DNA of 56,325 nucleotides, filler included, from Catajapyx aquilonaris (lineage: Eukaryota), in the NCBI GenBank assembly GCA_000934665.2. It is 3 parts of 3 records of this genome, joined end to end, with 100 filler letters (N's around TTAATTAATTAA, not from the genome) between each part and the next. Parts side by side here need not be neighbours in the genome. Positions count along the whole stretch, not along the records: positions 18,798 to 37,531 come from KZ539569.1; 2 more parts are not named here. One strand, given 5' to 3'. Made by a program: the position numbers and the translations under genes. The notes beneath the pieces were generated by a model that worked only from the letters and a program-made list of their open reading frames with translations, was not told the origin of the DNA and did not search any database. Shown here one piece after another: positions 12,201-37,531 of the stretch (position 1 is its first letter; every line of letters starts with the position of its first letter).

Positions 12201-14554
12201 TACTATATCGCTCAAAAACATGGAGACGATTTTGCATTTGACTCAAGTGCGGCCTGCACTTGAATCGAATGCAACATCGTCTCTATGTTGTTGAGTGATA
12301 TAGTACATCAGTGTCAAAAATGTGGATGATGATTAATATTTAATCCAAGGTTTTCATTTACTTTCACAGTGAGGAGGACAGAAAGCAACAAGTCCTGAAG
12401 CGCTACTGGGCTGATGAGATGAAGCCAAGGTGTGTTCTCAAAGAATTTGTGTGGAGTTGTCCTCCTGTCACTAACCATGTTTTGTATGGGCAGGTTCCTT
12501 TCCAAGTTTGAGGAGAAGATGAAGGGGATATCTCCTAAAGTCACCTACATCCACAAGGAAGACCCCAAGATAGAGCAAAGTCTGGGTCTCAAAGGTAAGT
12601 GTGTTAGGAGTTTTGCATTGTACGTCTGTAGTTGTAACCGTCTCTTTCTTTTCCCACTTCCAGAGAAGAATAAGTTTGGAATGTTTGTAGATTCTGCCAC
12701 AGGGCAGAAGGAAGGGGCATCATCTTCATTGGGGAACAAGTGGAAGGTCATTGGAGGAGATTCGATGACTTCGAGGTAAGTGTGTTCATATTCAAAGTAG
12801 GATGAATGTCTTATAAAAGTCTGTTATAAACAGGCAGTTTGTATTTGCGAATGATGAGACATTTACTGTGACAATCTGGTGTAATGGTAGAGGGATATTT
12901 TTCTTGATGAAGGAACTATGAAACTAATATAATTAATGGGAAACCCTTATTATTATCTGATGGCAATAATTGCCAGTATTGTAATTACATCCTAGGCTTT
13001 TAAACATTTGGCAGCTAATTAAAACATTGTTGACTTTTCAGGATGGAGAAGCCAGACATGGAGAAGCGAGTGGTGAGCATGAAGAAGGATGCTGCTGACT
13101 TTGAAAAAGTTCGTGCCCTGCAAGAGAAGTGGGCTACTGTCGATAAAGGTCTGAGTGACTGGGAGACTGACACCAAGCCAGTAGGCATGAAGGAACGTAA
13201 ATTCAAAGAGATGGCTTCTACAGATGATGAAAAGCATAACCTTCCAGGATCTGTCAAAGGGCTAGGCCTAAGCATGGATGACAGTCTGGTGAAAACAAAG
13301 GAGATGCTGGGCAAACTGGAGACGGGGTACCGCATGGGAAAGAAATCCACAGATGATGATGACGCACAGACTGGGTTAGCTGAAGGAATGATTGGCACAG
13401 GGAAGATAGCGCCCATTAAGATTGAGATGGGAAGTGCAGCCAAGGCGGCTGTGGCAGCTGTGAAAGCAGCTGCAGCCAAGGCGGAGGCAGAGAAGGAAGA
13501 ACGTTCTCGCTCGTCAGGTGAACGTTCCACGTCTCGCTCGTACACACGCAGCCGATCTCGCTCCTCCTCGTATTCACGCCGCTCACGCTCCCCTACAGGG
13601 CGGCGTCCACGTCATCGTTCCCGTTCCTACTCGCACTCCCGTTATTCACGCTCCAGATCTCGTGGGAGGTATCGTTCTCGCTCTCGCTCCTCCTCTTATG
13701 CTGCTACTGGTGAGCGCCGCCACCGATCTCGTTCCCGCTCATACTATAGTCGTGAGTCAGGCAGGTCCCGCTCACATGATTCCAGGTCTCGTTCAGGATC
13801 TCGTGGAAGATACAGATCACGTTCACGTGACAGGTACCACGACAGATCTGGAAGCCGCAGCCCAAGCCGTGATCGCCGTCATCATCACTACAACCCACAG
13901 CATTACAATCCACGAGGTCGCTATATGCATCGGGGTTACCACCAGCGTGGTAACAGGCGCCCTTACATGCGAATGCGAGGCCGAGGCCGAGGCCGTGGAT
14001 TCTACCAACGAGGAGGTGGATTCAACCCCAGGGGTGGATATCGAGGAAATTATCACCGTCCTGATGGTGGTGGTGGAGGAGGAGGAGGAGGAGGAGGAGG
14101 AGGACGGTACTATAAGAAGTACGACAAGTACGAACGCTACGACCATCGACGCAGCCCATCTGGAGGCACTCCCCGGGGTGAAAGAGGTGAGGGTAGGGAG
14201 GAGAAGCGAGAGGAGGATGACCGGATGAAACAGGTGCAGGAGGCAAAGCGCAAGATTGACGAGGAGTTGGGTGGTAAGAAGGAAGACGACGATGATGGGA
14301 GTGGCACTGAGGAGATGGACGACTCAGATTACGTGGATCGGAAGACGTTTGGTGGAAAGTGGGCCGAAGATGGAGGGGAGGAGCCCTCTAGTACTGGTAA
14401 TGGTGGTGGAGAGAACAGCAAGCCCAAGGACAAGATGGAGATACCCGAGACAAGCCTGGAGGAAATGGAGGAATTTTTGAACAAGGTGAAGCAGCAGAAG
14501 AAGGAAGAGATGAAAGAAAGAAATAAAGAGTTTATGAAGCCAGCCCTGTGGTAA
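3250..14554 (+). CDS. TTC14: Tetratricopeptide repeat protein 14 (S1 domain + TPR repeats + Lys/Ser-rich, Pro-rich and RS/RGG C-terminus), about 1461 aa
   Basis: Manually spliced GT-AG exons keep frame (sum 4386 nt): 3250-3401, 3558-3679, 5339-5415, 7013-7135, 7204-7415, 7855-8007, 8155-8346, 8564-8686, 9120-9464, 9787-10223, 10338-10388, 10460-10598, 10680-10768, 10897-11050, 11131-11220, 11839-11979, 12370-12429, 12494-12594, 12664-12775, 13042-14554. Diagnostic peptides: [45 protein letters not shown]1-like LEVGDIVIG...[11 protein letters not shown], and TPRs [29 protein letters not shown] and [21 protein letters not shown]. Confidence 0.93.
5547..6295 (-). mobile_element. Internally deleted Tc1/mariner element in TTC14 intron 3
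   Basis: About 100-bp TIRs starting CAGGGTGTTCCAGAGTT, with TA on both sides. Minus strand carries transposase remnants: N-terminal ...[26 protein letters not shown] joined to C-terminal [10 protein letters not shown]...[16 protein letters not shown]. Confidence 0.9.
12198..12308. repeat. Imperfect palindrome (MITE-like hairpin) in a TTC14 intron
   Basis: ATGTACTATATCGCTCAAAAACATGGAGACGAT... pairs with ...ATCGTCTCTATGTTGTTGAGTGATATAGTACAT. Confidence 0.75.
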
Positions 14555-18797: not shown

Positions 18798-19767
18798 GGG
18801 GGCAATCAGGGCCCGCCGCAGGCGAATTTTTTTCGGTTCAAGGTCACAACCCTTCCTCGCGACCCCAAATTTGGAGTCACGACCGCAAAATTGCACTGTT
18901 CTAGAGGGTTTTTGCGAGTTTTCCACCCGTTTTTTTTTCTTTTGTTCCTTTTTGCCCCCCCTAAATCCGCCACTGGTAATACGTAATGATTACGTATAGG
19001 CTAACTATTAATGTAATGATTTCTCATTTTCATTGTTTTTGTGCCATACTGATTACTGACACTGTGACTGCGAGAGTCTGACAGTGAGATAGTACGAGCT
19101 AAGACCCCGAATTGATTGGATCGAACCCGCTTTCTTACGTCTGATAGAATGTAGGTTATAGACGTTAGGCCTATTATAGATTTGTGGTTTTCCTCAAAAT
19201 TTTCTAAAACTCGTAGGAAAATTCCAGCGCCCCTTTGCTCGGGGGCCCTGGGGCAGTCGCCCCACCTGCCCCTATGGTAGTTACGCCACTGACACGTACG
19301 TTATTCAAAAGAAATATCCCAAGGGACCACAGACATTGGTATCTTATAGCAAAGGTTTCTTATATCCAAATGCATAGGCCACACATGGAAGTATGGCAGG
19401 ACCAGCCTTTTGTGTTTTCTGTAACCAAGGGTTGCTGATAGCTAGGCTCTCCCGGAGTCGACTGTATTGTAGTGAGTGGATATACCGTCTCTGGGCACAT
19501 GCTACCGATACTTTTGCAACATTGTAGCTTCTAACATTGCTTAATTCAAGGCTTCATTCTGTAAATGGTTGCATTAGGAAATTATTACGATCCAGTGTAT
19601 ATTTCAAAGAGGACGAATTTCAACTAATAATATAAAGTCAATACTACATGTGCACTGGGTGAGGGGTTCCAACCACATGATATTGCTGGTGCTGAGAAAA
19701 ATTTATAGTTGATATGCCAAGGAAGGACTTGTGTCAATCATTCATGGATACTTGGTCACCTTTGCAG

Positions 19768-20129
19768 ACATGGGATGGCACAAAATCTCTGCTATCCAAC
19801 CTGGAGGCACTGCTTGGAACTACACTGCCCTCCCAGGAGTTCATTGCAGAGAATGAAATTGAGTGTGGGATTTGCCTATCATTCATTCTGGACAACCAGT
19901 CTCCAAGTGAAGTATGCCCTGAGAAACGTTGCAATCGTGTCTACCATCTTGTATGTTTATTTGAGGTATGCACCAAAATGATTGTAAAGGAAAATGAATT
20001 TGGTTCATGCTGTTTTTCTCCCTTTTCTAGTGGCTGGTGAATGTACCAACAAGGAAAAGGACCAATGACACTGTATTTGGTCCTTGCCCATATTGTGAAA
20101 CTCTCATGGTATGCAAGGAAATAAAGTAG
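19768..20129 (+). CDS. FANCL: E3 ubiquitin ligase FANCL, last two exons only (RING-variant domain)
   Basis: Exon 19768-19965: TWDGTKSLLSNLEALL...ECGICLSFILDNQSPSEVCPEKRCNRVYHLVCLFE. Exon 20031-20129: WLVNVPTRKRTNDTVFGPCPYCETLMVCKEIK*. Matches the FANCL C-terminal pattern CGIC...VC...C...HxxCLxEW...FGxCPYC. An alternative acceptor is possible at 19709. Confidence 0.88.
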
Positions 20130-20156
20130 TTGTGTTACACCCATAAATTAACCCCA

Positions 20157-20162
20157 TTTATT
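20157..20162 (-). terminator. AATAAA polyadenylation signal downstream of CYB5RL
   Basis: TTTATT on + strand about 98 nt past the CYB5RL stop codon. Confidence 0.6.
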
Positions 20163-20259
20163 CAGGCACTCTTTAGCACAAAATTCCAACAACAGGCTTG
20201 ATAAAGGCTCAAAGCAAGCTCGAAGGAATTACCGAACAACTTGGAACCTCATAACAATC

Positions 20260-21120
20260 TCAAAATACATGCACGAACTCAGGTTTTGAGCCCAATTCCA
20301 TTAGGTACAGCTTGACATCATGTTCATAAGACTTGGTACCACATATCACAAATTTATATCCATCTGCACATTTGCCTAGTTCATCTGCTAAGTCAGACTT
20401 TCCAATATGTCCAAAGTATACATCCTCTCCATACTTAGGCTTAAGTGATGGCTCATCACTAAGGAACCATTTTGATGTGAAGTTCCAGTATGATCCAAAT
20501 TGCTTGATGCGCTCACGAAACAATAGGTCTTCATACTTTCGACAAGAGTACAATAGGCGGAGCACTGTGTCATCACCCTCATCATCTAGCACTGTTTCAA
20601 TCAGACGAATCATTGGAGCAATGCCAGTACCAGCTGCAAGCATGACAATGCGCTTGCAGGTATTTGGTGTGTATGTAAATGTACCATATGGTCCTTTCCA
20701 CAAAACAGTATCATTGACCTGTAGTGTACGTATATATTGCGACATACGTCCATCGTGGTACAATTTAATGGCCACATCAAATCCATTTGAGTTTATTGCA
20801 ACAGGTGTGTATGCACGCCGAATCAGGTTGTACTCCATCATCATATGCTGCGCTGGTTTAATATGTAGTTTAACATTAGCATTAAATCTATACAAGTTTG
20901 TGTCATGAGACATTTTTGATATTGATACAACCCGAAAAGGTGTTGGCTCAATTAGGGTGATTGCATCATTGGGTATATTGCATTGCCGTTTCCATGCGGC
21001 TAATTTTTTTGCATATATGTCGTACACACATTCGGTGCACCCACCACCACAGCACATGTCAGAAGTTGGTTCTACCGGCTCATCATTTGGTGGCATTTCC
21101 ATCGCACTTCTTTGTGTCAT
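20260..21120 (-). CDS. CYB5RL: NADH-cytochrome b5 reductase-like protein, intronless (in-frame ATGs at 21120, 21102, 21096)
   Basis: N-terminal oxidoreductase-like motif PVEPTSDMCCGGGCTECVYDIY, FAD-binding RAYTPV and GRMS, NAD-binding AAGTGIAPM, C-terminal ICG...VHVF. Uninterrupted ORF of 286 aa. Confidence 0.92.
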   Translation of the reverse strand: MTQRSAMEMPPNDEPVEPTSDMCCGGGCTECVYDIYAKKLAAWKRQCNIPNDAITLIEPTPFRVVSISKMSHDTNLYRFNANVKLHIKPAQHMMMEYNLIRRAYTPVAINSNGFDVAIKLYHDGRMSQYIRTLQVNDTVLWKGPYGTFTYTPNTCKRIVMLAAGTGIAPMIRLIETVLDDEGDDTVLRLLYSCRKYEDLLFRERIKQFGSYWNFTSKWFLSDEPSLKPKYGEDVYFGHIGKSDLADELGKCADGYKFVICGTKSYEHDVKLYLMELGSKPEFVHVF

Positions 21121-21580
21121 CCCAATCTATTTTAAAGCGGGTAACCCTAGGGCTAGTTGCCAATATATTACGGGTCAGTTTCTCAAACTGTGGCACTGTT
21201 GGTTGGGTTTCACGTAGCTCGCCATCTGAATAGTCATTGTTCACGTAGTATCCAACCCGTATAAATTCCTGACTGCGGTATGAGCAAGTCAAGAGTACAA
21301 CAGTAACACCAACTGCATCAGCCACAGGAATTTTGTCAACCTGAGGTGGATCAGCCTGAAACACAAACATATGGCGACCTTCAGGTATGGGTCCTACATA
21401 CACAGTGTCCAAAATTTGGTCATATTCCTCACTCTCAGCTGAACCAACATATATTATCCTCCATTCCAAATCCTCCTGAAGGTCTTCAATGCACTCAAAG
21501 GTTATCTCAAACTGGAATGGGTTCAGGAATGGCGAAGGATTGTCCAGGACAACCACATTGCACACATGAACTTTGGCCAT
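21083..21580 (-). CDS. ASF1: Histone H3-H4 chaperone ASF1, intronless, 165 aa
   Basis: MAKVHVCNVVVLDNPSPFLNPFQFEITFECIEDLQEDLEWRIIYVGSAESEEYDQILD...VGVTVVLLTCSYRSQEFIRVGYYVNNDY...PRVTRFKIDWD is the canonical ASF1 core. Confidence 0.98.
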   Translation of the reverse strand: MAKVHVCNVVVLDNPSPFLNPFQFEITFECIEDLQEDLEWRIIYVGSAESEEYDQILDTVYVGPIPEGRHMFVFQADPPQVDKIPVADAVGVTVVLLTCSYRSQEFIRVGYYVNNDYSDGELRETQPTVPQFEKLTRNILATSPRVTRFKIDWDDTKKCDGNATK

Positions 21581-21618
21581 TGGTACATTGCACTGTTGCT
21601 ATTGTACTGGCAATATTT

Positions 21619-24600
21619 CTATTGTCGGTAGAGGGTCCATACACAAGTCTGTCCTATTCCTGTTGAACTGACCACGTGGTAACCTTTTTCTTCTAGTTTG
21701 TCCAGAACCACACGTGGAGGAAGTTGTGTCTTGTACACCGGACTGAAAAAAATATGAAAATTTAGGGATACAACAACAAACTGGCATGACATGTCTTCAG
21801 GGATGCAAGGTATTTTGCAACAGGTAACCAGTATCAAGAAAAATCATTGACCAATGTTCACATGAATTCACTTTGTGAGGATACTGCAGAAGTTTGATTC
21901 CAGATAGTATAGTCTCAGATTTTTTACTGTTTCTTTAGCTCATGCTTCTCTCATTTTTGTAAGAATTTGTGTGACTTCTTCCTATGCTAGCAGGTACAGC
22001 AAAAATTCTCATGTCTGAGAGCATGTCCGAAATGAGGATTGTGTGGTTCAAAAAATCCAGAAGAACCAACTTAGTATGATGGAACATTCTGAAGTGATTT
22101 TTATCAACTAAGGATAATAATGGATGCCATGTGATAGGCCTACTTGGTCCTTTTACGCAATTTACGGGATCATCTCTTCAATAACTGACTTTAATAAAAT
22201 TCCCTAGGCTGTGATGGATTTTGATTGTGGGTGGAAATGGGATAACCCCGAGAAAACCCACGCGAATATGGAGAGAACCCATTGCACTTCTTTCCACACA
22301 TGTATCCTCTGTCCAATCTGGGGATCAAACTCAGGACCTCAGAGGTGGAAGGCCTAACCACTACACCACTGTGCTGCCCTGAAGTATTTGGTATTACATA
22401 TGTTTATTTTTCTCTTGACTGCATAATGTGCACCATGTTTTAACTTAACTTTTGCAGCAATTTTGTTTCGAATCAAAATTGGAAGAAGAAGAAAATGAAA
22501 CAAACCCTGAATATTGTGGCACATCTTGTGATTGGGACCTCAAGCTAAGAAAAAAAAAGAAATGACTGCAACTACTTCCACATGGCTTATTTCAGGATTG
22601 TAAATCATTATTTTTGGGGCCGTCCATAATCCGCGCGGACAGATTTTTTCACTTTTTTACCTCCCCCCCTCCCCTTTGCGGACAGAAGCGGACAATATCT
22701 TACCTCCCCCCCTAAAAATTGCGCGGACATGGCCTCCTTGACCCCCCCCCCCCNNNNNNNNNNNNNNNNNNNNNNNNNNNNNNNNNNNNNNNNNNNNNNN
22801 NNNNNNNNNNNNNNNNNNNNNNNNNNNNNNNNNNNNNNNNNNNNNCCCCCCCTTCACTTGTCCGCGCGGATTATGGACGGCCCCTTTATAAATGCATAAT
22901 GTGCACCTAGAGTAATTCTGACTCAAGCTTACTCCCATTCTGTGAAAGTTGTTCCTAATAAAAGTAATAATATTAGTTGAAAAAATGACTCAATTTTTCA
23001 ATATACAGGGTGTTCCAAAAAGGTGTTCCCAGTAAAGAACCAATGCAATTCCGGAAGTATTCCATATATTTTATTCAAATTTGCCGGGAAGGTGGCACAT
23101 AATTATGATCAAGTTTTTGTACAAAAAGTCACACCTCCACATGTCCACCCTGGGGTCGAAGACACAGCTTAAACCGTTCTTCAGCTGCTCGCCAGGTGTA
23201 GCTTGTACGGATACATCTTCAGCATTTTCCGTACGATGCGGTGCATCGAACTCAGTGGGATATCCATCTCCAGGGATCCCTGACGCAAAGACTTCTGCAG
23301 ACTCTTCAACATGGCTTCCCTCACCTGTTCAACACGACAAGTTGCAGGTGGACGCCAAGAGCTCTTGCCATGGACGATGCAGCCTGTCGCTTCGAAACTC
23401 TGGAACCACTTAAGGATGAACTTGTTGGAGGGTGGGTCTTTGCCATTGAGTTGCCGGAACTCTCTTCGCACTCTAGTCACACTTTTCAGTTCAGCGAAAA
23501 AGACTACACACTTTGCTTTTACTGAAGATGTATCTGTACAAGCTATACACCTGGCGAGCTGCTGAAGAACGGTTTAAGCTGTGTCTTCGACGCCAGGGTG
23601 GACATGTGGAGGTGTGACTTTTTGTACAAAAACTTGATCATATGTGCCACCTTCCCTGCAAATTTGAATAAAATATATGGAATACTTCCGGAACTGCATT
23701 GGTTCTTTACTGGGAACACCTTTTTGGAACACCCTGTACTTTCCCTGAGTTACGAAATCATGAGCTTGAACACTTCAATGCAATTTTTTGGTACTTGAAA
23801 TGTCCGCAGCAGGTGCTGGAAACTTTCCAGAATTTTAATTGTCAATTTTATGGAAATACCAATTGATGCCCAACTTTTAGTTGCATAGAGCTATCTGAAA
23901 GTAATATAATTAATAAAATTAATTCTTATTTAAAAATGTGGCAATGTTCAAATGGGTTATTACAATGGAGAAAAATGAAGGTGCACATGCCCCAGTTGCA
24001 TGTTCAAAACGGACCACGAAAGGGACAATGAAAAATGACACCCTACCCAAGAAGGCTCGAGTTGGATAGAATAGGCATTTAAAATATACAGTGTTCCAAG
24101 TTTGTGGGCCATTTTTAGTTAGGAAATTTTGCTCGAATCTGGTATTTTCTGTAGCTTGTTGTGCCCCTAACCATGTGCCATATTCTAAAGCAACTGCTAT
24201 ATTCGACCACCTGAAGTAATGGGGCAACAGGATCAGCAACAAGCTACTAATAAATAAGTACTTCAGGTGATATTAGTGATTTAACTAAAAATTACCCACG
24301 AACTTGGAACACCCTGTATATATAAAGTGTGTCTGAAGTATATGGTTCGCTTTAGTTATAGGAAATTTCACTTGAAGCTGTTATTTTTTTATAGCTTGTT
24401 GCGCCCCGATTGAGGTGACCTATATCCTCCTGAGACCCAAGAAAAACTTTTTAACACAATGTCAGTTCCTGTTGCATTTTCTTAACCAATTGTCAATAAG
24501 AAACTTGAAAAAAATTAGTTCTAAAATATTGACCAAAATAATGACAAAAAAAAGAATGTCCTGTTAGGTCTCAATTGCTGCCACAAAAGCAAAACGGATG

Positions 24601-27600
24601 AATGCTGAAAAGTTCAATGCCATTTAACCCTTTGACGACTACGAACATCATATGATGTCCGAGCTTACATTGCTGGAGGGCCTACGAACATAATTTGATG
24701 TCTTGAGATTTGCCCTGCCAACTTGGGTCATTTTTCAACTCAAAATTCCAACCTCACTGATTTTCTTGAAATTCGGTGCATTGGTAGCCCACCCCAAGGG
24801 ATGACTAATGCACCTATATAGTTACCTGTTCAAAATGATCGTGTGACCCATTTTTGAGGGGGGCAGAGGTCAAATTCCGACCTCACCGATTTTCTTGAAA
24901 TTCAGTGCATTGACATATGCCCCCCTCCAATGTGGGTCACAGGGTCATTTTGATCATGTAATTATAGGTGCGTTTTCATCCCTTGACTACCAATGGATCG
25001 AATTTCAAGAAAATCGGTGAGGTCAGGATTTGACCTCTGCCCCCCTCCAATATGGGTCACAGGGTCATTTTGATCAGGTAACTATACGTATGTGCATTTG
25101 TTATCCCTTGAGGTGGGCTATCAATGGATCGAATTTCAAGAAAATCGGCGAGGTCGGAATTTTATGACTTGACCTCTGCCCTCCTCAAAAATGGGTCACA
25201 AGATCATTTTGATCAGGTAACTATAGGTAATCCAGGCAGTCCGGGGATAATCCGGGCAGTCCGCGGATTATTATTCATTAATATCACTCTTCATCAACTT
25301 TCCGGAAATGGGGAAAAAGAACTCCGGCCCTCGGGTAAGGCAATGGCTCAAAAACTCTGTCGTTCAAAGGTTAATGGGTCACTCACATAGTGCTCTATCC
25401 TCCAAACAATGTTTTTACATTCATTTGTGGAATTCGAGGTAGCAATTCCTCTCAGAAGACAATTAAAGGTAAATATGAAATTATTTTTCAAGGACAAAAC
25501 TTCAGGAATAGGGATTGCTCCTCCCCTTCTTACCTCCCAGCATGCTACCTCACTATTCTAGGTATTAAAACTGAACTGTAGTGCAAAGCACACTACCTTG
25601 TGGGTGTACACTGTACAGGTACAGGAAAGTACAGAAAAGTTACCATCCCATTCGGAGAATTTGTTTTCTTCTTCGAATGTAGATATAATTATTGTTGACA
25701 CAACACCAGGTCTCAGGAGGATAGAGCAACTACTACAGGGTGGTTGTAAAGTAACTGCCTATTGGAAATGTGTAATAAAATTGTCAAATATTGTTCGATT
25801 TTCATGAAACAAGTTTTATTCTGTACCTTACAATGGGAGAATTTAAACTCCCGCCAGTATGCAACTCCACGGCACCAGGTGGCAGCAGCAGTCCCGATAC
25901 CAGTAAAAATGGCGCAGCTGGCGTCCCGTTTTGAAGTCGGGGTCGGTGGTTGAAGTGCAGAGATGGTGGCGATACATACACGGACCTCGTGCCACAGTTC
26001 ATCCGAGGACCATAAAGAACTGCCATTCGAAGCTGATATGGGCGAACCATCGCGGTGCCACGTTTTCCTCTGTCCTCGATGTCGACGGACGACCACTCCT
26101 ATGGCTGTCCATCACGGACCCCGTGCTCATCAGCTTCGAATGGCAGTTCTTTATGGTCCTCGGATGAACTGTGGCACGAGGTCCGTGTATGTATCGCCAC
26201 CATCTCTGCACTTTAACCACCGACCCCCGACTTCAAAACGGGACGCCAGCTGCGCCATTTTTACTGGTATCGGGACTGCTGCTGCCACCTGGGGCCGTGG
26301 AGTTGCATACTGGTGGGAGTTTAAATTCTCCCATTGTAAGGTACAGAATAAAACTTGTTTCATGAAAATCGAGCAATATTTGACAATTTTATTACACATT
26401 TCCAATAGGCAGTTACTTCACAACCACCCTGTATATTCAGCCACTTGGGAATAATTGGGTACCGGTACCTTGATTGGGGTACAACAAGCTATACAAAAAT
26501 AATTACTTCCAACGATATTAGCAATAACTTAAAACGACCCGACATTGGAACACCCTGTATATGTGACTTTTTGATCTCCCCTTGTATGTAACAGGTTTAG
26601 AGGGAGAGAAAAAATATGTGTGCTAGTGCAAGTCTAGGGTCTAAGAAAAAAATACAGGGTGTTCCAAGTTTGCGGGTAGCTTCAGTTATCGGAAACCTCT
26701 CTTGAATAATATTTTTGTGTAGCGTGTGGGGGAGGCAGAGTGGCGCAGTGGTAACACTCACGCTCACAGATAGAAAGGTACTGGGTTTGATCCCAAGCCG
26801 GGTTTTCTCTTTCTCATCTCATGTGGAGTTTCATTGTCTCTGGTTTCACCTCAAGTGGTTCTCTGCTAGACTAACCACCCAGGGGACTCCACAAGATGAC
26901 TCTGCACCAGCCCCCTGCAACTCCTATAATACGGTACTGTAGCACCCTTACAGAGTCTCCGCCCCCATGAATTTGGCACTGCCGGCGCTCTATGTCTACG
27001 GTCACTGAGGCTGTGCTACCATCATCATAAGGCTAGGCTGGGAGTTGAGGGGGGCTGCTCTGCAGCACTCACACCTGCACCTGCATATCTCCCCTCCCAG
27101 CAATCCTCCCTTGCTCGTGGTACCTGGGCATTACAGAAAAGAACCATGCTTGTACGCCATAAAGTAAATAAAGGTACCATGCCAGTTGCCGAATACAGAT
27201 GGTGCACTAACCCAATTATATTATTATAAATTATAATAATAGTTTGTGTATCTTGTTGTGCCCCGATGCAGGTGCCTTACTCACGGGCAACAAGCAACAT
27301 TTAAAAAAAACGTAGGGTGATATCCAGATTAACTAAAAACGACTTTGGTACTTGGAACACCCTGTTTGAAATTTAAAAAATTTCATTCATCCAGTAACAA
27401 CACACAAACACCAATAAAAGGGTCCTTATGCACCCCGTTTTATGGTACAGTCTCATTCATAAAGACTGGGAAGACTCTATGGATGAAATGTTAATCCTGA
27501 TTATCCAGCATTATTCCCAACCTTATTTCGACGAAACCCTATGGACAACCTTTTCTGAACCTCTGGTGACTTGTATGACCCATCCTGATTTTTAAATAAA

Positions 27601-29084
27601 AATTTTAATTGCCAAAATGTTCAACCAGGTGCAATGCGTACGTTGATTTGATGTTCATTCCCCCTAAAATTTTCCTACTTTGGTTTGTTTTTTTCTTCTC
27701 TTTTTTATTTTATTTTGATTCCCTTTTCCCGGACTTCCTCATGACCCCTAAAAACATGCTGGCAACCCAGGCGTTGAGAACAGGATAAATATTTCGTCCA
27801 TATAGTCGTACCATTCGTTATGAACGGTCCTGTACATGGACTTCTCCACACTAGATGTAAGGTGCCTGCATGTAATTGCCAGGCACTTTAATAAAGATAT
27901 CAGCCTACTGTTATACATCATAGATTAACAATATATGCTACATTTTACAAAATTTTAAAGGTGACATTACAGTTCTAGTGGTGTTGCATGCAATGGCAGG
28001 AGGAAGTCAGACTAGTGGAAGTTTCTCTTCTCCAATTGTCTGATAATAATTCTTGGGCCTCAGGGTCTGACTTGGGCCATTTCAACATCACCAAATTCAC
28101 TCTTGAATGGAGTTTGGCATTTTACTGTAGCAGGCTATTGAGATTGTGTTTTCCTTGATTAATCTGCTATTGCCCGCTTTCCCATTAACCCTGGAACCGT
28201 GCCATGGGGTCACTTTGGACCCCAAGGAAAAAAATGCATTAAAATGATAATTACAATGAACTTTTGCCATTTTTTTTACAGTAGCCTACTGTAAAAAAAT
28301 GGCAAAAGTTCATTGTAATTATCATTTTAATGCATTTTTTTCCTTGGGGTCCAAAGTGACCCCATGGCACGGTTCCAGGGTTAATCAGTAGGCCTATGTA
28401 ACAGGAAGTGCAGGTTTATTTTGAATTAGCGATCCTTTTAGGCATTGTTCAAAGAATGATTGTATATAGTCAATACACTGAAAAGTATTATATAATAATT
28501 AATAAAAATTAAAATATGGTGGGGTCCGAAAAGACCCGACGTAGGCACAGCACGGTTCCAGGGTTAATGCATCTTTTACATACCAGTACAATGACAATCA
28601 TTCAAAACCATGTGGTATGCATCAAAGAATGAGGTTCCAAGACTGATGCTACTTACAAAATCAACTATCAAGTCAAAATTAGGTATTTCGGCTGCTAATG
28701 ACCTCACAGCTGAAACAAGATTATGAAAATGTGAAAATGTGCCACAAATAGGAAAACACCTTATTTTTGGTGGCAAACAGAAATGACAACATTGCCATAT
28801 GCGGTGGCTTACTGTTTGCTTCATCAATGTTACACCGGCATCAAGTACTGCACTTCGTACTACGACACAAACTTACAAATTGTTTCCTGGCTCGGTACCC
28901 ATCTGAGCATCCAAGTAGCTCATCAGATTAACGTCAGAGAACTCATCTCCGACGATGGTTGGACCACACTCCTGCAGAACAACAAAAGTACCAATATATC
29001 CCTGAATAAATAGCCCATACCTCATGTTATGTAAGCATGCTTTGTTACCAGTCTGATCTGCGTGGTGACTAGAACATAAGGCAT
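21619..29084 (-). CDS. GCHFR: GTP cyclohydrolase I feedback regulatory protein (GFRP), 3 exons, 84 aa
   Basis: Exons 29084-29049 (MPYVLVTTQIRL), 28971-28877 (ECGPTIVGDEFSDVNLMSYLDAQMGTEPGNN-F) and 21742-21619 (PVYKTQLPPRVVLDKLEEKGYHVVSSTGIGQTCVWTLYRQ*). GT-AG introns of 77 and 7134 nt; phases are consistent; total 255 nt. Confidence 0.95.
22215..22379 (-). mobile_element. tRNA-derived SINE with V-SINE-like central domain
   Basis: Minus strand has A box TGGTGTAGTGG and B box GAGTTTGATCCC, then TGTGTGGA...GTTCTCTCCATATTCGCGTGGGTTTTCTCGGGG...TTTCCACCCACA resembling the V domain. Confidence 0.7.
22616..22884. mobile_element. PIF/Harbinger-like MITE containing an assembly gap (22754-22845)
   Basis: TIRs GGGGCCGTCCATAATCCGCGCGGACA ... 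TGTCCGCGCGGATTATGGACGGCCCC. Confidence 0.75.
23006..23736 (-). mobile_element. Non-autonomous Tc1/mariner element with about 220-bp inverted termini
   Basis: Ends CAGGGTGTTCCAAAAAGG.../...CCTTTTTGGAACACCCTG flanked by TA. Internal transposase N-terminus TRVRREFRQLNGKDPPSNKFILKWFQSFEATGCI...MHRIVRKMLKMYPYK. Confidence 0.9.
24089..24316. mobile_element. About 230-bp Tc1-type MITE (family A)
   Basis: CAGTGTTCCAAGTT ... AACTTGGAACACCCTG with TA flanks; internal TAGCTTGTTGTGCCCC shared with neighbouring copies. Confidence 0.75.
24628..25370. mobile_element. piggyBac-like non-autonomous element with internal about 120-bp repeats in both orientations
   Basis: TTAA-CCCTTTGACGAC ... GTCGTTCAAAGG-TTAA. 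Unit CCTCACCGATTTTCTTGAAATTC... occurs forward at 24746-24915 and inverted in tandem at 24917-25228. Confidence 0.65.
25736..26431. mobile_element. Near-perfect palindromic Tc1/mariner derivative (about 300-bp arms)
   Basis: TA-CAGGGTGGTTG ... CAACCACCCTG-TA. Arms 25736-26037 and 26128-26431. Remnant TGSVMDSHRSGRPSTSRTEENV is typical of mariner-type transposase N-termini. Confidence 0.9.
26655..27364. mobile_element. Family A MITE interrupted by a SINE
   Basis: CAGGGTGTTCCAAGTTT ... CTTGGAACACCCTG. The MITE sequence resumes at about 27251 (TCTTGTTGTGCCCC). Confidence 0.7.
26722..27235 (+). mobile_element. tRNA-derived SINE
   Basis: A box TGGCGCAGTGG, B box GGGTTTGATCCC, AT-rich tail, and an approximate target-site duplication AATAATATTTTTGTGTA / AATAATAGTTTGTGTA. 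Confidence 0.75.
27448..27832. mobile_element. Diverged TA-flanked MITE
   Basis: CAGTCTCATTCATAAAGACTGGGAAGACTCTATGGATGAAATGTTAATCCTG is an imperfect inverse of CAGGATAAATATTTCGTCCATATAGTCGTACCATTCGTTATGAACGGTCCTG. Confidence 0.6.
28185..28567. mobile_element. piggyBac-like MITE with a 200-bp foldback duplication of its left end
   Basis: Left end TTAA-CCCTGGAACCGTGC. Palindrome 28184-28385 centred at 28285 with one indel. A second right end GCACGGTTCCAGGG-TTAA lies at 28550-28567. Confidence 0.8.
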
Positions 29085-29590
29085 AGTTTTCTGTTGCAAT
29101 TTGTATCACTACTAGAAGGTCATGTGCGCTGAGGATAGCTGGGACTTTGTACACGTGTTTGTTTTCCGTTGCCGTCTTTTCGAAGGGGGGTAAAAAAAAG
29201 AAAAGCGGCGTAGATATCTGGCCAGCTGTTTCGCGTGGTGTTTTCAAGAGGCGGCAGCGTGGCTTAACTGTTTGGTGGAGTAGCGGCGAGCACGGCGGCG
29301 AAACTGCAGTGACGGGTTTCTTTGGCGGCGGCGAACTTCGGCGCTTTTTATGATTAGGCCGGTCGAGGAATGGATGTTTGGCTGGTTTGCACTTGACTGT
29401 AGTACTAGTAGTAGTACATCTTTATTATGCACTTGAACATTCATTCCCACCACTCTGCCTTCGCTATAGTTGCATAATATCCCCGGCATTAAATTGTATT
29501 GGACAAATGTAAATTACAGTTCAAAATATAATATTGTGTGCATGTTTTATTAGTATATACAAAAGAAGTAGAAGAATGAATACAATTATT

Positions 29591-30761
29591 TTATTGTCCT
29601 TCTTCTACGACACTGCTCTCTTTTTTGTTTGCTGTAGCAAAAACTTGGCAAATGTCACTTCTGAACCGGTCATTTAAGGCAAAGCAGATCCAAGGTCTGG
29701 ATGCAGCCGGTACAAAATGCAGTAGCAGCAAAAGGTGATTCACTAGCCGAAACCATGGTGGACGGGCATCACTGCTGGAAACCACTAGTTCGTCGACAGT
29801 GACGTAAGAATTCAGCACTTGCCACGGAAACGCCAAGAAGAAGGAGTGAAGAAGAAGCCCCAGGGTCATCCTTCCCATCTGCTGGTCTACTACGTCCTCT
29901 TTTTCTGCAACCTCCACACTGTATTCGTCGTCTTCCTCATGCGAGCGCTTGGGACATACCCTTCTTCGCAGTGCATCGATGGCTGCAGCGGCGATCAGAA
30001 AAAGAGGGACGACATTCTGAAGAGCAGTGCATGTGACGGTGTAGAGAAAGTACTGGAGTGATCGTCCCAGCACGGTGAAATCTTGAAACAGTAGAGCGCA
30101 AGTCACACCTGACGAAACCTGCCAAATAAAGTTTGGTGAGAGACAGTGCGATGCAACTCTAGTCCTGCATAATTCCTCTAGGATCGTATAGGAAATGTCA
30201 GCAGCAGTGATACCACTATTAAAGCAGAGTCTACCATATACTTACACCTTCGTCAAATGATGGTGCTCCTTGAATCTTGAGGTCGCTCATGAGAAAGGCA
30301 GGAACACTGAGCGACACTCCCAGAAGCCATGGTGCTGTCAATGCAAGTGACGAAGAAGCAACTGTAGCTCCAGGGACGGCTCCTAGGCCAAGTCCAGCCA
30401 AAGTGTACGTCGTGACAGTCCATAGCACCACCCATGATGAAGAGTGTACTTTGCACACCCACTTGCCGAACACCCAGACCCCGCTGGATTGGGCCAACAC
30501 CGTGAAGGGTACCACCAGAGCCAGGGTCAGCAGGTCAGTCAGGGAGAGCATCATCAGCCATGAAGAAGTTGAAGACGGCTTGGATTTGGAGGTCGATCGT
30601 CCCAACGGTAGCAGCACCCACAGGAAGAGGATGTTACCCACCACTCCGGCCCCAAGCAGAATGGTCAAATACAAACTGATCACCACTGGCTCTTGAGGTA
30701 ACGAAACCTGTAGCACACTGGCGTTGTCCACAGTCATGTTCCACTCAGACACGTTAGACAT
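29591..30761 (-). CDS. Orphan class A (rhodopsin-like) GPCR, 2 exons, about 347 aa
   Basis: Exon 30761-30246 (N-glycosylation sequons NVS/NMT/NAS, TM1 GVVGNIL, TM2 LSLTDLL...VPF, WVFGKWVCK, TM4 W...SVP) joins in phase 0 to exon 30118-29591 (ECL2 Cys, TM5 NVVPL, TM6 FFLAFPW, TM7 SRPWIC, helix 8 NDRFR). Confidence 0.85.
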
Positions 30762-31840
30762 CGTCTGCGATGTAGGCCCACCAGAAGTCAAGTGAGCACA
30801 TTGGCAGAAGAAAGCCCAAAGCACGACCTACATATGAGTGTGGAACCATATGTGCACTGATCCTTTCCCACGCTGTGACACAGACCCCGAACTTGATACG
30901 TTTGGGCATGAGGGGAGAGCTCCCGAGGAAGAAAAATATATCTCCTTATATTACCACAAGTTGACTCACTACGCGACTACGGATATGACCCTGAATATCA
31001 ACACATCAAATAGTAGGCTACTGCGATAAAGCATTTAAATCCTAGATAGCCTACAGCCTGCTGGTATTTGAACTGGCGATATTCTAGGAGGACAGTATAA
31101 TGCATGGTTGGTATAATGCAAAGGATCTTGCAATGAACTACTGATGTCAAGGCCACGTCACAGCATTTTAAAATGTATATCAACTATGTATTCCACTGTC
31201 CAGAGTTTAAAAAACAACAACTTATACCCCCTATTTAAATACAAACTAGATGTTTAGAGTCGTAGCCTACAGGCCATTTTGGTTAGGTCACGGTATAAGT
31301 TATTTGCTAATATGCTGATAGAATATTATAACAAGTTAGTGTGTTAAATTTTAAAAATCGCGCTAAAGGCAAAAAGAGATCGTTCACCTCTTCCTCAGCC
31401 AGCTGAGAAAGTGACTCAACCCCCATAAAAGCTGCCACGTCATCCACGGCAGTCAAATGCGAAGACATATTTCGAGAAAAACATACCTCCGTATTCTAAC
31501 GGTTTTCTTCTTTAATTTGCCACCAACATAAAATATGAAAATTGTTCTATGATAACAAGACATGCCTGTTTTGTTCCTTCTTTTGGGGTTTTCAAAATAT
31601 TCATTATTTAGGTCAATAAAAATTCATAAGTCTGGCGAAATATGGGGTTTTAACTGCAGAGATGTAAACATAATTTTAAAATTGCAACAAGGAGCCCCAA
31701 ATCGGTCATTCTCTTTTTAATGGAACTTGGAAGTAACCTATTATAATTTTCCCCTGACTTGTGACTCAGAAAATTGGAAAACACGAACGCCCATGGTCAT
31801 TTGCACTTAGAATATTAGATTCATATTCTGAACTAACGTA

Positions 31841-31871
31841 TAATAATAATAATAATAACAATAACAATAAC
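31841..31871. repeat. (AAT/AAC)n microsatellite
   Basis: TAATAATAATAATAATAACAATAACAATAAC. Confidence 0.9.
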
Positions 31872-33485
31872 GCATATGAAGTAAAATATGGTTTGAGATC
31901 ATCATTTTATACTTATTTATTTATTTATACTTATTTATACTTTTATATTTAAGAAAATAAGCGAAAAGATATTATGAGATATTGAAAACTCAGTAACATG
32001 GCATGGGGGAGGGGGACATCGAAATATTAGCTTGCCTCGGGTGACAAAGATCCTATTTTATCTACTCTCCCACCCCCTTACTCCCCCGCCCCCCAACGAT
32101 ACCCATCCTCTCCAGTCTCCAGTCTCTCCACCACCATCTGATTTGTGACACAGGGTCAGGCTCGGGTCCACCACTTCCGATCCCCTGCATCAAAGTCGTG
32201 ACAGAACTACGGTATAAATAATTATTATTTTGGAGGAAATTAGACATTATACCTGGGCTCTCTATAAGCACACGAAGAAGCAAAAATCACAATTTTAGTG
32301 AATTATTATTTTCTGCCCTTCTAAAGCCAATATCCCGTGATGGTTTAAATCAAATATCAGACCTGTCCCAATGGACAATAACATACTATGCACATGCAAT
32401 ATTGTAACTGAAAGTTATATAGATAAAAGTGAACAAGCTGATTACCTTGTTTGGGTTCCTCACTTATGCAAAATACAAATTAAATCCTGTTATTATTAAA
32501 TGGTTGTATGTGTATTATTATTTGTGGTTTATTTGAAATCTGGAGGGACAATTTAAAAGCTGCTCAAGTGCTAGCCATGGGAAGAATGCGAGCCTTTTTG
32601 TTTGTTCCTAACGTGTTCTCGTAACACTCATGACCTATATACCAAGGGTATTCAACTAGTTTCTGACAAGGTCCAGTATTTACCTTTCCTGGGCCATATT
32701 GAAGGTCCGGACGCCCCCCCCCCCCGGATAAAAATATATAATTATAGATTTTATAAGGTACCACAGGTCCACGGGTTCATATTCTAAAATATAAACATGT
32801 GCAGCAAGGATAGAAGGGCCTATCAAGACAGAGCATATGAAGACATTTTCGCCCTTTATGATGTCCTGTACAAGCACGTAGGCAGAAGAATTTGGGGGGG
32901 GGGGGGGGGGCATTTCGTAAGCACAAGGTGAACAAGCCATAAAGGGCGGGGAAGGAGCCCGCCGCAGGGGAATTTTTTGGGGGGTTCAAGGTCACACGAA
33001 CTTAGGTGAGATGTGGGAGATTTGAATGGGTGTGTATTTGATGAAATTGGTAGCACTTTTTCCAAAAAAATCATGAATTAGTAATTTATCATGCTATTTC
33101 AAACTGTCCTGTATATTGTCGCGGTCCGGACAAAATTGCGTCGCGGTCCGCATCCGGACCGTAGTCCGCCACCCTGCTATATACGGTTGTCAATAGTCAT
33201 CGCTTTTTTTGGTGGGAGGTACACTTACGATCGGTTTCTGTCCAAATAATGAGCCAATTGAAACCAATCATTGAGCTATAACGAACTGTGAAATGAAATC
33301 ACGGAGGAATCCAGATCAGGTCAAATCGAATCATGATGTGATTTTCTCGCAATGTTGCCGAGGAAACGAAACCCAAAGGAGAAAAACGAAATCTCTTTCG
33401 GACAGACGTCTCTTGTCAATGGTTTCTATTTTTTAAATAATTATTCACTCCTGTGGAGAACACATCCACATAATTTATATAGGTA

Positions 33486-34228
33486 CAGAGTGTTCCAAAA
33501 AGTGTTCCCAGTAAAGAACCAATGCAGTTCCGGAAGTATTCCATAATTATATTTTATTCAAATTTGCCAGGAAGGTGGCACATATAATATATTATGATCA
33601 AGTTTTTGTACAAAAAGTCACACCTCCACATGTCCACCCTGGCGTCGAAGACACAGCTTAAACCGTTCTTCAGCTGCTCGCCAGGTGTAGCATGTACGGA
33701 TACATCTCCAGCATTTTCCGTACGATGCGGTGCATCGAACTCAGTGGGATACCTATCCATCTCCAGGGATCCCCGACGCAGGGTCTTCTGCGGACTCTTC
33801 AACATGGCTTCCCTCACCTGTTCAACACGATAAGTTGCAGGTGGACGCCCAGAGCTCTTACCATGGACGATGCAGCCTGTCGAAACTCCGGAACCACTTA
33901 AGGATGGACTTGTTGGAGGGTGGGTCTTTGCCATAGAGTCGCCGGAACTCTCTTCGCACTCTAGTGACACTTTTCAGTTCAGCGAAAAAGAGTAGGCCTA
34001 CACACTTTGCTTTTACTGAAGATGTATCTGTACAAGCTATACACCTGGCGAGCTGCTGAAGAACGGTTTAAGCTGTCTTCGACGCCTGGGTGGACATGTG
34101 GAGGTGTGACTTTTTGTACAAAAACTTGATCATATGTGCCACCTTCCCTGCAAATTTGAATAAAATATATGGAATACTTCCGGAACTGCATTGGTTCTTT
34201 ACTGGTACCACCTTTTTGGAACACCCTT
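33486..34228 (-). mobile_element. Second copy of the 23006-23736 Tc1/mariner deletion derivative
   Basis: Collinear and highly similar to 23006-23736 in both termini and internal transposase fragment, with small indels and a duplicated terminal TTTGGAACACC. Confidence 0.9.
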
Positions 34229-35561
34229 TTGGAACACCTATTTATGACAGGCGTGTCATTGCTAGGTGTAGCCTACCAAGTAACTGTTTGGAACAACAGA
34301 TAATTTATGGAAATTTAACTGCTGCAGTAAGAGTGATATGCGGAAGAAAAGCGCGACAATGTTGTCATGAATATTACTTGGATTGTTATGAAATAATTAT
34401 TCGGGTTAGCCGTGGCTCCGACCCCTCTTGACCCCGCGAGTACTCCTCCACCTCCCCCATCGTCTTTCCCCCACTGCCGTTTTACCCTTCCCCCCAGCTC
34501 ACTTTGAGAGAACCTACTCGGGCCATCATCAGAGTCGGAATGACCAGTGCGCAACCCGCTCGCGCAACCAGTTCCCCCGCCCCTCGCGTCACGTGATCGC
34601 GGTGGAGAGCCAATCAGAGTGGTTTGGGGGCGTGATTGACAGGACCAACCCCCAGAAGTAAAGCCACTTTCATCGCTGATGAGCGGGAGGGCATGGTGGT
34701 CTTGTGGTATGACACCGGCCTATAAAATGAAAGGTCGGGGGATCAAAACTCGCCCAGCCACCATGCCCGGGGCAGATCCGCACTCCCTACTCTGCCCGGG
34801 ATTATCAGAAATCCTCCCTTGGGAACCACCCATGACCAGGATTATCACAATAAAAGTACAATAAAATTTTTTTTATTGATATTAATTACAGGACTGATGC
34901 AGTAATAATGATCAAGTCGTAAAATGGGTTTCAAATATTAGTTAGCTATTATAAAATATAGGCTACTATTATATTTATTATATACGGTACAGGTATATGT
35001 ATGAAGCATTCCATGTCAACTAGACCCCCCCCCCCCTCCCCTACTAACAAACCCGAGTATGATGTAGCAAGCGCTTGGTTGTAGTACCCATGTTTCTGAG
35101 CAAGGGCCTCGTTTTGTTTGTCCCTGCGACGCGTGGTTGCATAACTACAGTCTGTGAAAGATACGGATTTTTGCCAATTTTGCCTCCGCCCGCCATCAGT
35201 TGGAGGGCCATAACTTCGGAAGGCTTTGGCATATCCGAAATGTGATTACTGAAATGGGAACTGAGCTATGGTAACACCCTTTCATATGGTAGGAATCATG
35301 TTTTTTTAAAGTCAAAATTTCGAATTAGACATGGCGGCCAAATTTTTGATTAGAATCTTATCAAATATTGACCGTCAAAAAAATCGAATTGCGCTTAAAT
35401 TGAAGCCTGGAATGTTTTATTGACAATAATTAGGCAAAATCTAGAAGGGGCGAATTTCGATATTAGGCAGATATAAAAACATTTTGTGAGCCAAAATATG
35501 TAGTTACCTCAATTGGCAACAAAATTTCACAAATATTTTTGGTTTAATAATAATTAATACT

Positions 35562-36262
35562 GCATGTTACTATGAGAAAGCCTGATTCGAAAACTCGATC
35601 TAGGTAATAGTAAATACAGATGTCAATGGCCAATTTTAAAAGAGACGCCCATTTTAGAACGCTTTGAGGAAGGAGCAAGTTTCAGAAATTTTATTGCCGT
35701 GTACAATATTGCCGTTCCAGGGACGCATGCAACAATGGTATTTGGCATGATTAATTTGTGTTGGGTGGTTTAACAGGGTCATTGTTGTAAGGAAGAACGG
35801 ATTTTATCGCGCAAAAGTGGAAAGAGAAACGAAGATTCTCCCAGGCTCCAACTCGGAGCACACTAATCTTTTCCCACTAATACGGTATTGTTGACAGTCA
35901 GTTCCAATTTGCTTCCAGTGATGAATCTTGATAAACCACCCAACACAAATAATTAATCATGCCAAATACCATTGTTGCATGTGCCCCGCCTGGACCTGCA
36001 ACGAGCCAACAGCTACCTCATTGTTGCTTTACAACACTTCAAAAAATTATTGTTGAAATGGAAGCTTGACAATTGACTTAGACATCCGTACACGGCAATA
36101 AAATTTCTGAAACTTGCTCCTTCCTCAAAGCGTTTAAAAATGGGCGGCTCATCCAACTTAACGAGGTTTATCTATTAAAATTGGTCATTGACATCTGTAT
36201 TTAGCCTACTATCACCTAGCGTCCTAGCTAGATAGAGTTTACGAATCAGGCTCATAACATGC
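35562..36262. repeat. Large imperfect inverted repeat (foldback/MITE remnant)
   Basis: 35562-35772 (AACGCTTTGAGGAAGGAGCAAGTTTCAGAAATTTTATTGCCGTGTAC; CAACAATGGTATTTGGCATGATTAATT) is mirrored in 35932-36262, with insertions. Confidence 0.8.
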
Positions 36263-36595
36263 GATATGAATTATTAAAGCAATAATATTGGTGAAAATCA
36301 TGTAAAATTGGTTTTGATGATCAAAGTCATTTAAAAGTAATTAAAGAAAATCTTGCATCACTTCTACTGTGGTATAAGCTGATTCTAGTGATGAATATGG
36401 TGGCACAAGCAGTGTAATATAGAGACGTCCAGAAATGATGATTAGTTTTCTGAGTTCCATTTTTGTACAAGTTGGCATAGCTTATAGACCATGTACGCAA
36501 AAAATGTAAGTGAATAACCCCTTGGGACGACTTGGGATATCCTGTATATCCCGAGAGCAGCCCACGGACACTTATACTACGTTCTGGCGTTATCA

Positions 36596-36885
36596 CCTGC
36601 CGAGGGATTACGCACCGGGTGGCCACTTGAGATCGCTACGAGACATTTCCCAAGGCTATCATGTGGCGACCCTACCGGACTAAGGCTGAACTTTAGATGT
36701 ACAAAGGGGAGGGCTACATTGGGGGGCCCAACATGGCCGCTGGCGGCCATATTGGGCCAGCATGTAGCCCTCCCCTTCGTACCCGTAAAGTTCAGCCTTA
36801 GTCCGGTAGGGTCGCCACATGATAGCCTTGGGAAATGTCTCGTAGCGATCTCAAGTGGCCACCCGGTGCGTAATCCTTCGGCAGG
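36596..36885. repeat. 290-bp GC-rich near-perfect palindrome
   Basis: CCTGCCGAGGGATTACGCACCGGGTGGCCACTTGAGATCGCTACGAGAC... pairs with ...GTCTCGTAGCGATCTCAAGTGGCCACCCGGTGCGTAATCCTTCGGCAGG; centre at 36741-36742. Confidence 0.92.
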
Positions 36886-37531
36886 GGGTGGGTGGGGAGT
36901 GACCTAATCTGAGTCTTCAATAACCATGCCCGAGAGATATCCAGTGCCGACCGCTGTCGACCAATCCCGCGCGAAAATTTCTGCAGAACCTGGCTACCTT
37001 GCTGGCTACCATGCATTTCAGTGCTGCGGTTATTAACCATACCTGGTTATAGCACAGAATTCAGTTAATTATCTATATTGTAAGACCACCAAATTATTAA
37101 TTTTCAAATTTTAAAGATTCAGTGTGTGCGTCCTGCGTCTGGCAACTCACTTGTGCATGCCTTATTGCCTTCTTCGGAGTTCGGATCTTCTTACATTCCT
37201 GCGGCAGGATCGGACAGCAACGCAGGATCATGGTCTGAGGAGGCTGCATTGGCGCTTGTCGAACGTCATATCAGGGCAAGTGTGTATGGAAGGGACTGGT
37301 ACAGGTTTGAGTCGGAGGGCATTGCCTGGGCCCTGGGGATGGAATCATTTGGATGGATACTTGTGACGGTCGATAAGGCGTGAATGTCTCAAGTCACGGC
37401 ATCGTACATTTTTAATATTTTCGCATTCCGGGTGGCATATTAACAATCTGTACATGGCTAGAGAGACAGGCGGCCTGGGCCCCGCCCTCCCTCGCTCCGA
37501 TTGGTCCTGCGTCTGGCGCGCTTTTAAAAAC

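Follow-up and report, generated by a model that had tools for sequence, protein, structure and literature searches.

In the 56,325-nucleotide (nt) stretch of Catajapyx aquilonaris DNA analysed here (NCBI GenBank assembly GCA_000934665.2), three unrelated and intact open reading frames (ORFs) lie almost abutting on the minus strand, encoding, in this order, GCHFR, ASF1 and a CYB5RL-type reductase. We refer to the whole stretch, which consists of three parts of three records joined by filler, as the window; its positions 18,798 to 37,531 come from KZ539569.1. ORFs and signals were checked at all coordinates. An earlier reading of the DNA, made before any comparison with other data (the sequence-only reading), had noticed three intact, conserved and tightly spaced minus-strand coding sequences (CDSs), and our ORF and Pfam analyses agree with it at every coordinate: the GCHFR stop codon ends at 21619, the ASF1 ATG follows after 38 nt (at 21580) and the ASF1 stop codon (21083) lies inside the CYB5RL-type ORF. 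A scan for the hexamers AATAAA and ATTAAA detected neither of them from the acceptor of GCHFR exon 3 (21742) to the ASF1 stop codon, which includes the 38-nt spacer, also described earlier as free of both. Three such hexamers are located inside the CYB5RL-type CDS (AATAAA at 20797-20792, ATTAAA at 20862-20857 and ATTAAA at 20769-20764), and the first one outside coding sequence is the AATAAA at 20162-20157, again as previously proposed. The spacer contains four AG dinucleotides. In the model of the spliced mRNA, GCHFR is in frame 0, ASF1 in frame 2 and CYB5RL in frame 0.

Each of the three cistrons was identified as a conserved protein-coding gene by Pfam, homologue searches and alignments. 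Exon 3 of GCHFR alone is recognized as GFRP (Pfam PF06399; E 1e-16, 61 bits, for a cut-off of 25), and the spliced product of 84 amino acids (aa) aligns from end to end with the GFRP ORFs of two metagenome contigs described below, L008 (cladoceran-like) and L030 (barnacle). The ASF1 ORF matches Pfam PF04729 over the whole profile (1-154 of 154; E 3e-74, 248 bits) and thus encodes a complete core. With its closest database homologue it shares 88% identity, and no residue invariant among the 11 aligned ASF1 proteins is altered in it. Its C-terminal tail extends only 10 residues past the core, whereas the 120 homologues listed all have 178-241 aa, with a tail.

The third ORF contains the Oxidored-like, FAD_binding_6 and NAD_binding_1 domains, all above the Pfam cut-offs, and its best matches, with 33-39% identity, are named NADH-cytochrome b5 reductase-like by NCBI. 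The same 33-39% identity separates it from the CYB5RL proteins of echinoderms, crustaceans, a sea spider and ticks, which are equally far from one another. The residues invariant among 11 aligned proteins are kept, including R102-x-Y-T105 (RAYTP), L161-P169 (LAAGTGIAP), C260-G261 and the C-terminal F286, which we take to be the FAD and NADH-binding motifs of the CYB5RL family. Prolines 15 and 18 are also invariant among these 11 proteins and are located upstream of Met22; this places the CYB5RL start codon at the ATG of 21120, 21102 or 21096 and makes the overlap with ASF1 a genuine one.

Transcription of the locus was examined with the contigs of a single public RNA run (X1), compared with positions 18798-30500. 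Over this region the contigs are devoid of three introns and are therefore derived from spliced RNA. One of them (1874 nt, depth 13.6, no mismatches) is composed of the pieces 29222-29048, 28970-28877 and 21742-20138, and it continues unbroken through the end of GCHFR, the spacer, ASF1, the overlap and CYB5RL, with both GCHFR introns (77 and 7134 nt) removed. The three conserved same-strand CDSs are thus covered by one processed RNA contig. Its last piece confirms that ASF1 and CYB5RL are intronless and share with the end of GCHFR a terminal exon of about 1.6 kb starting at the acceptor at 21742, as had been suggested (20138-21742, 1605 nt), and its start at 29222 falls inside the interval 29100-29350, for which a promoter had been proposed. 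The contig ends at 20138, 19 nt past the AATAAA at 20162-20157, the very signal assigned to it in the sequence-only reading, whose claim of one transcript over the three genes is supported by this assembled RNA. On the plus strand, a convergent contig of X1 that belongs to a FANCL-like gene ends at 20142, about 22 nt past its own AATAAA at 20120. Both convergent contigs end shortly after their own AATAAA, and therefore these ends resemble genuine 3' ends; the two contigs overlap by 5 nt. Among the six loose contig ends listed, to which 19 further ones add, none is located at an ORF junction, and contigs lose rare forms. Contig cover is absent or low in parts of the 7-kb intron and in the 180 nt just upstream of exon 3, from which we draw no conclusion.

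De Bruijn contigs merge RNAs that share 31-mers, so that a contig across two genes does not by itself reveal a single transcript, and the X1 contig could in principle be a chimera of overlapping transcripts or reflect genomic contamination. We give almost no credence to such an assembly artefact: both introns are missing from the contig, which is therefore not genomic DNA, continuous k-mer cover requires RNA crossing each junction, and independent contigs of other organisms have the same multi-ORF structure. The features of the locus are collected in Table 1.

Table 1. Coordinates of the features of the GCHFR-ASF1-CYB5RL locus, counted along the window.
Feature	Position	Strand	Basis
GCHFR, 84 aa, three exons	ATG at 29084; stop TAG 21621-21619	-	ORF reading and RNA contig joints
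Exon 1	29049..29222	-	RNA contig 5' end at 29222; 138-nt leader and first 12 GCHFR codons
Upstream ORF in the leader, 3 codons + stop	29112..29123	-	ATG list of the spliced mRNA model
GCHFR intron 1, 77 nt, GT..AG	28972..29048	-	Contig joint, CT..AC on the + strand
GCHFR exon 2	28877..28971	-	Contig piece 28877-28970; translation aligns with GFRP of L008 and L030
GCHFR intron 2, 7134 nt	21743..28876	-	Contig joint 21742 to 28877, CT..AC
Shared terminal exon, 1605 nt (GCHFR end, ASF1, CYB5RL, 3' untranslated region)	20138..21742	-	Contig piece, 0 mismatches, 0 gaps
GCHFR last coding part with stop TAG	21619..21742	-	Pfam GFRP profile 45-82 of 83, E 1e-16
Spacer from GCHFR stop to ASF1 ATG, 38 nt	21581..21618	-	Sequence
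ASF1 CDS, 165 aa, intronless	21083..21580	-	Pfam PF04729
CYB5RL-type reductase CDS, 286 aa, intronless	20260..21120	-	Three Pfam domains and homologues
Overlap of ASF1 end and CYB5RL start, 38 nt, different frames	21083..21120	-	ORF coordinates
AATAAA poly(A) signal	20157..20162	-	Sequence; RNA contig ends 19 nt downstream at 20138

The sequence-only reading had also proposed a synteny comparison of the three genes in related taxa, and the same order was in fact found in other pancrustaceans. We used a set of 80 metagenome loci, fetched with ASF1 alone and then searched for GCHFR and CYB5RL (tblastn and profiles). One or both of these genes are present beside ASF1 in five of the 80 loci (L008, L030, L044, L049 and L050), with a constant strand and gene succession (GCHFR, ASF1, CYB5RL). 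Since order and strand recur in loci fetched with ASF1 alone, the arrangement is beyond chance. The cladoceran-like contig L008 (2652 nt), whose ASF1 shares 95% identity with P0077 and 87-88% with named cladoceran sequences, contains all three genes (GCHFR 203-463, ASF1 463-996, CYB5RL 1016-1930), followed by an AATAAA. The GCHFR stop and the ASF1 start share the sequence TAATG, and a 19-nt spacer separates ASF1 from CYB5RL. The barnacle contigs L030 and L044 are 99.4% identical over 986 nt and were therefore counted as one species; in them GCHFR is followed by a 279-nt spacer and an ASF1 of 210 aa, which is 86% identical over its full length to the ASF1 of Pollicipes pollicipes. This spacer has no ATG, for 3.2 expected, and only 1.3% of 2000 shuffles were ATG-free. 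L044 matches L030 (99.4%) up to ASF1 codon 123 and is wholly different from about position 995 onwards; this divergent end may be an alternative exon or a misassembly, intron retention having been discarded because the divergent part begins without GT.

L049 and L050 are genomic insect-like contigs, with ASF1 exons 89-92% identical to orthopteran ASF1 and with introns in ASF1. In L049, the last GCHFR exon is located 3.7 kb upstream of the ASF1 start exon, and its intron position is the same as in the window; in L050, an intronless CYB5RL begins 246 nt past the ASF1 stop codon, with no AATAAA or ATTAAA in between. In both contigs (L049 3985-4003, L050 237-255) the ASF1 ATG is situated 14 nt past a strong 3' splice site (pyrimidine tract and CAG), which implies that this first ASF1 exon is spliced to one further upstream, which could be a leader exon or the GCHFR exon. 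As the same order is observed in barnacle, branchiopod-like and hexapod-like loci, the linkage is older than the split of barnacles, branchiopods and hexapods. A wider synteny was rejected: the convergent 3' neighbour is the FANCL-like gene in the window and a Pus10 gene in L008 (2026-2652, minus strand, at the contig end; Pus10_C, E 3e-69).

The age of the linkage excludes a recent retrocopy insertion as its origin. Processed copies of ASF1 and CYB5RL that landed in the GCHFR 3' untranslated region (UTR) of this lineage, and that would be untranslated passengers or young retrogenes, are suggested by the lack of introns in both genes here, compared with two ASF1 introns in the insect-like contigs, and by the truncated ASF1 tail (the 120 homologues listed have 178-241 aa). 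Nevertheless, we consider this origin highly improbable, since the barnacle, cladoceran-like and insect-like loci (L008, L030/L044, L049 and L050) have the same order, rather than the arrangement being confined to one lineage, and since the intron-bearing ASF1 of L049 and L050 occupies the same position, which places the linkage before any retroposition here. Moreover, both ORFs are intact, with the residues invariant among the 11 aligned proteins of each family kept, and no A-rich tract is present after ASF1.

The long RNA could also be the precursor of a spliced-leader (SL) operon, cut by trans-splicing at AGs that precede ASF1 and CYB5RL; such processing is known from nematodes, tunicates and some crustaceans. 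SL trans-splicing exists in amphipods, spliced-leader sequences having been trimmed from Parhyale reads (excerpts of PMC5111886), and the 38-nt spacer offers four AGs. However, these are not preceded by a pyrimidine tract, no AATAAA or ATTAAA is found upstream of either downstream cistron, and the TAATG of L008 leaves no intercistronic acceptor outside coding sequence. In addition, assembly yielded mainly the multi-ORF RNA in X1, L008 and L030, and the six loose ends listed for X1 (19 others besides) spare the junctions. Taken together, these observations make an SL operon very unlikely.

Several routes by which the downstream ORFs could be translated were considered. Nine AUGs come before that of ASF1 in the spliced model (that of the three-codon upstream ORF, the start codon of GCHFR, six internal AUGs and a single one in the spacer), and ten further AUGs are located between the ASF1 and CYB5RL AUGs; because of these nine and ten AUGs, leaky scanning is unlikely. 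A structured internal ribosome entry site also seems unlikely, on the basis of folding predictions: the four junction regions (two in the window and two in L008) are no more stable than shuffles (z +1.12, +0.49, -0.08 and +0.54), and no Rfam family match was obtained in 20000-22000. Readthrough or frameshift fusion was rejected, since the frames of the ORFs differ and the ASF1 and CYB5RL ORFs of L008 are separate. The distances from stop to start are +38 and -38 nt in the window, and -1 (TAATG) and +19 nt in L008, so that at both junctions of the window and both of L008 a start codon overlaps the upstream stop codon or is close to it, as in termination-reinitiation. We therefore favour this mechanism as the putative route to ASF1 and CYB5RL. 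A TGGGA, which resembles motif 1 of the viral reinitiation element TURBS, precedes the CYB5RL start in the window and in L008, where it corresponds to conserved Trp-Asp codons of ASF1; none precedes the ASF1 start.

We propose that the three genes probably constitute a conserved pancrustacean polycistronic transcription unit, GCHFR-ASF1-CYB5RL, with expression from a shared transcript. One promoter, just upstream of about 29222, would give rise to a pre-mRNA from which the two GCHFR introns are removed, and the resulting mRNA of about 1.87 kb, ending past the AATAAA at 20162-20157, would contain three complete CDSs one after another: GCHFR, which regulates GTP cyclohydrolase I; ASF1, here the histone H3-H4 chaperone core; and the CYB5RL-type flavin reductase. 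Expression of ASF1 and CYB5RL would rely on this mRNA, each being translated by ribosomes that finish the preceding ORF and then restart at the nearby AUG.

A number of observations weigh against this proposal. The assembled contig represents continuous RNA cover over both junctions rather than single molecules with all three ORFs, and the library type of run X1 is not on record. The spacer of the window contains an out-of-frame ATG at 21588, which precedes the ASF1 ATG by 8 nt, has G at -3 and would compete for scanning or reinitiating ribosomes. Under the usual rules, ORFs as long as 84 and 165 codons permit only inefficient reinitiation. Nor is the cluster found everywhere: among 37 loci with an ASF1 at least 70% identical, GFRP is present in 4 of the 16 that have at least 300 nt upstream, and CYB5RL in 2 of the 10 that have at least 900 nt downstream, three of these 10 (L049, L054 and L055) being uninformative for CYB5RL as they stop short of the ASF1 tail exon. 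The linkage is evidently lost or loosened in some lineages, judging from these loci, and the insect-like spacings are large (3.7 kb, and 246 nt with eight ATGs), which makes co-transcription in those contigs no more than a possibility. In D. melanogaster, asf1 is absent from the polycistronic gene list in File S1 of PMC4528330 (no occurrence in 351 rows).

The main alternative is separate expression, in which the long RNA is real but GCHFR alone is translated from it, ASF1 and CYB5RL being made from shorter mRNAs whose promoters would be internal, located within exon 3 or intron 2 of GCHFR and within ASF1. Such internal starts would be invisible in contigs, many AUGs lie ahead of each downstream start, and the ATG-free barnacle spacer is equally expected as the ordinary 5' UTR of an ASF1 mRNA from an internal promoter; polycistronic loci in FlyBase, moreover, often have alternative monocistronic transcripts from downstream promoters (excerpts of PMC4528330). 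Nevertheless, we regard separate expression as unlikely, since the junctions leave no room for promoters outside coding sequence (a 38-nt spacer and a 38-nt overlap in the window, a 1-nt overlap and 19 nt in L008), and since order and strand are strictly conserved in four lineages, which is what the dependence of the downstream genes on a shared promoter would predict. The X1 contig is also unbroken by branches at both junctions, a weak point as contigs drop rare variants.

In a stronger form of the polycistronic proposal, the tricistronic mRNA would be obligate and would date back to the pancrustacean ancestor; ASF1 and the reductase would be promoterless, and their synthesis would rely entirely on ribosomes that, having translated a full-length ORF (84 or 165-177 codons), reinitiate at a stop-start junction, for example UAAUG. 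We put this forward tentatively, as a possibility that is on balance doubtful; if true, it would be a case of cellular reinitiation after long ORFs, so far studied mainly in viruses, and would imply fixed ratios of the three proteins. Under the polycistronic proposal itself, a shared transcript would account for the conserved microsynteny, and evolution would have supplied natural replicates in which to study how animal ribosomes gain access to a second and a third long ORF. The junctions of these replicates differ, from overlaps (TAATG in one case, 38 nt in another) to spacers of 19, 38 and 279 nt, the last one free of ATGs. Annotators should be aware that ASF1 and CYB5RL may be without promoters and 5' exons of their own in these taxa. 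Judged by titles and abstracts, none of the papers listed by our literature searches describes the GCHFR-ASF1-CYB5RL trio. The novelty resides in this particular trio, in its three full-size products and in how deeply it is conserved, multi-gene mRNAs themselves being well established in arthropods, though seldom studied.

Other features were observed within and around the locus. The interior of GCHFR intron 2 contains an N gap (22754-22845) and repeats. Two near-identical stretches in opposite orientation at 25713-26454, inside this intron, give rise to mirror-image ORFs of 82-166 aa, and the region looks like an inverted repeat or a transposon remnant. Related ORF fragments are located at 23181-23573 (minus strand), also in intron 2, and at 33554-33973 (minus strand); both are probably transposon-derived, and the former has a weak match to the helix-turn-helix DUF4817 (21.5 bits, below the cut-off of 22.6). 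The convergent FANCL-like gene occupies 19696-20142 on the plus strand, with a FANCL_C domain and a last intron of 65 nt (19964-20028) that is backed by an RNA contig. On the other side, two adjoining open frames at 29591-30827 (minus strand) encode a rhodopsin-family receptor, with a 7tm_1 match in 30231-30827; they end about 370 nt upstream of the start of the GCHFR transcript, on the same strand, and no X1 contig is present there. Elsewhere in the window, an open frame of 506 aa at 13034-14554 (plus strand) is rich in Arg-Ser and Gly repeats; Pfam gave no match, and the frame probably belongs to an SR-type protein as one of its exons.

The arrangement can be compared with several known systems. 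It shares with the SL trans-spliced operons of nematodes and tunicates, and with the amphipod SL system (excerpts of PMC5111886), closely packed genes on the same strand that would be served by one promoter, and differs from them in having no poly(A) signal before the downstream cistrons and a multi-ORF RNA as the assembled form; nor was an SL seen. Termination-reinitiation at UAAUG has been described for influenza B M1/BM2 (PMC3035654) and for ORF A/B of the hypovirus CHV1 (PMC2699510), in the excerpts available of both papers. The GCHFR/ASF1 junction of L008 is exactly TAATG, and neither downstream start of the window is farther than 38 nt from the upstream stop, one lying after it and the other before it; unlike these viral systems, the genes are cellular, and any dependence on termination is putative. 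In the green algae, the excerpts of PMC7896298 and PMC11892635 describe polycistronic nuclear genes, with conserved multi-ORF capped mRNAs that encode unrelated proteins and have persisted for long evolutionary times, and the C. aquilonaris locus similarly appears to have a long-kept, conserved multi-ORF mRNA for unrelated proteins. The green-algal downstream ORFs are reached by leaky scanning (excerpts of PMC11892635), whereas the nine and ten AUGs observed here argue against that route.

A close counterpart among animals is provided by D. melanogaster, for which FlyBase lists 159 dicistronic pairs, seven tricistronic and two tetracistronic loci (Crosby et al., 2015; excerpts of PMC4528330). 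In view of these numbers, the premise of the sequence-only reading, that polycistronic units are nearly unheard of in animals, was too strong for arthropods. According to the same excerpts, stop and start are -34 to 319 nt apart in the fly loci whose transcripts are all polycistronic, and 26 genes on polycistronic transcripts share sequence with a neighbour read in another frame, in most cases less than 40 nt of it; the distances in the window and in L008 are at or near that range. As in FlyBase polycistronic loci, several unrelated conserved CDSs are present on one processed, spliced mRNA, and, again as in the excerpts of PMC4528330, the partners are mostly functionally unrelated and the mechanism of downstream translation is mostly unknown. 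Nevertheless, the trio is not a fly arrangement, given that asf1 is not in File S1. Fly polycistrons are enriched in small peptides (excerpts of PMC4528330), whereas the three products here are full-size and conserved (84, 165 and 286 aa). Multi-gene mRNAs in animals, usually viewed as fly curiosities rich in small peptides, would thus extend to three full-size and widely conserved proteins, ASF1 among them, and, unlike in the fly polycistrons, their order is kept across barnacle, branchiopod-like and hexapod-like lineages.

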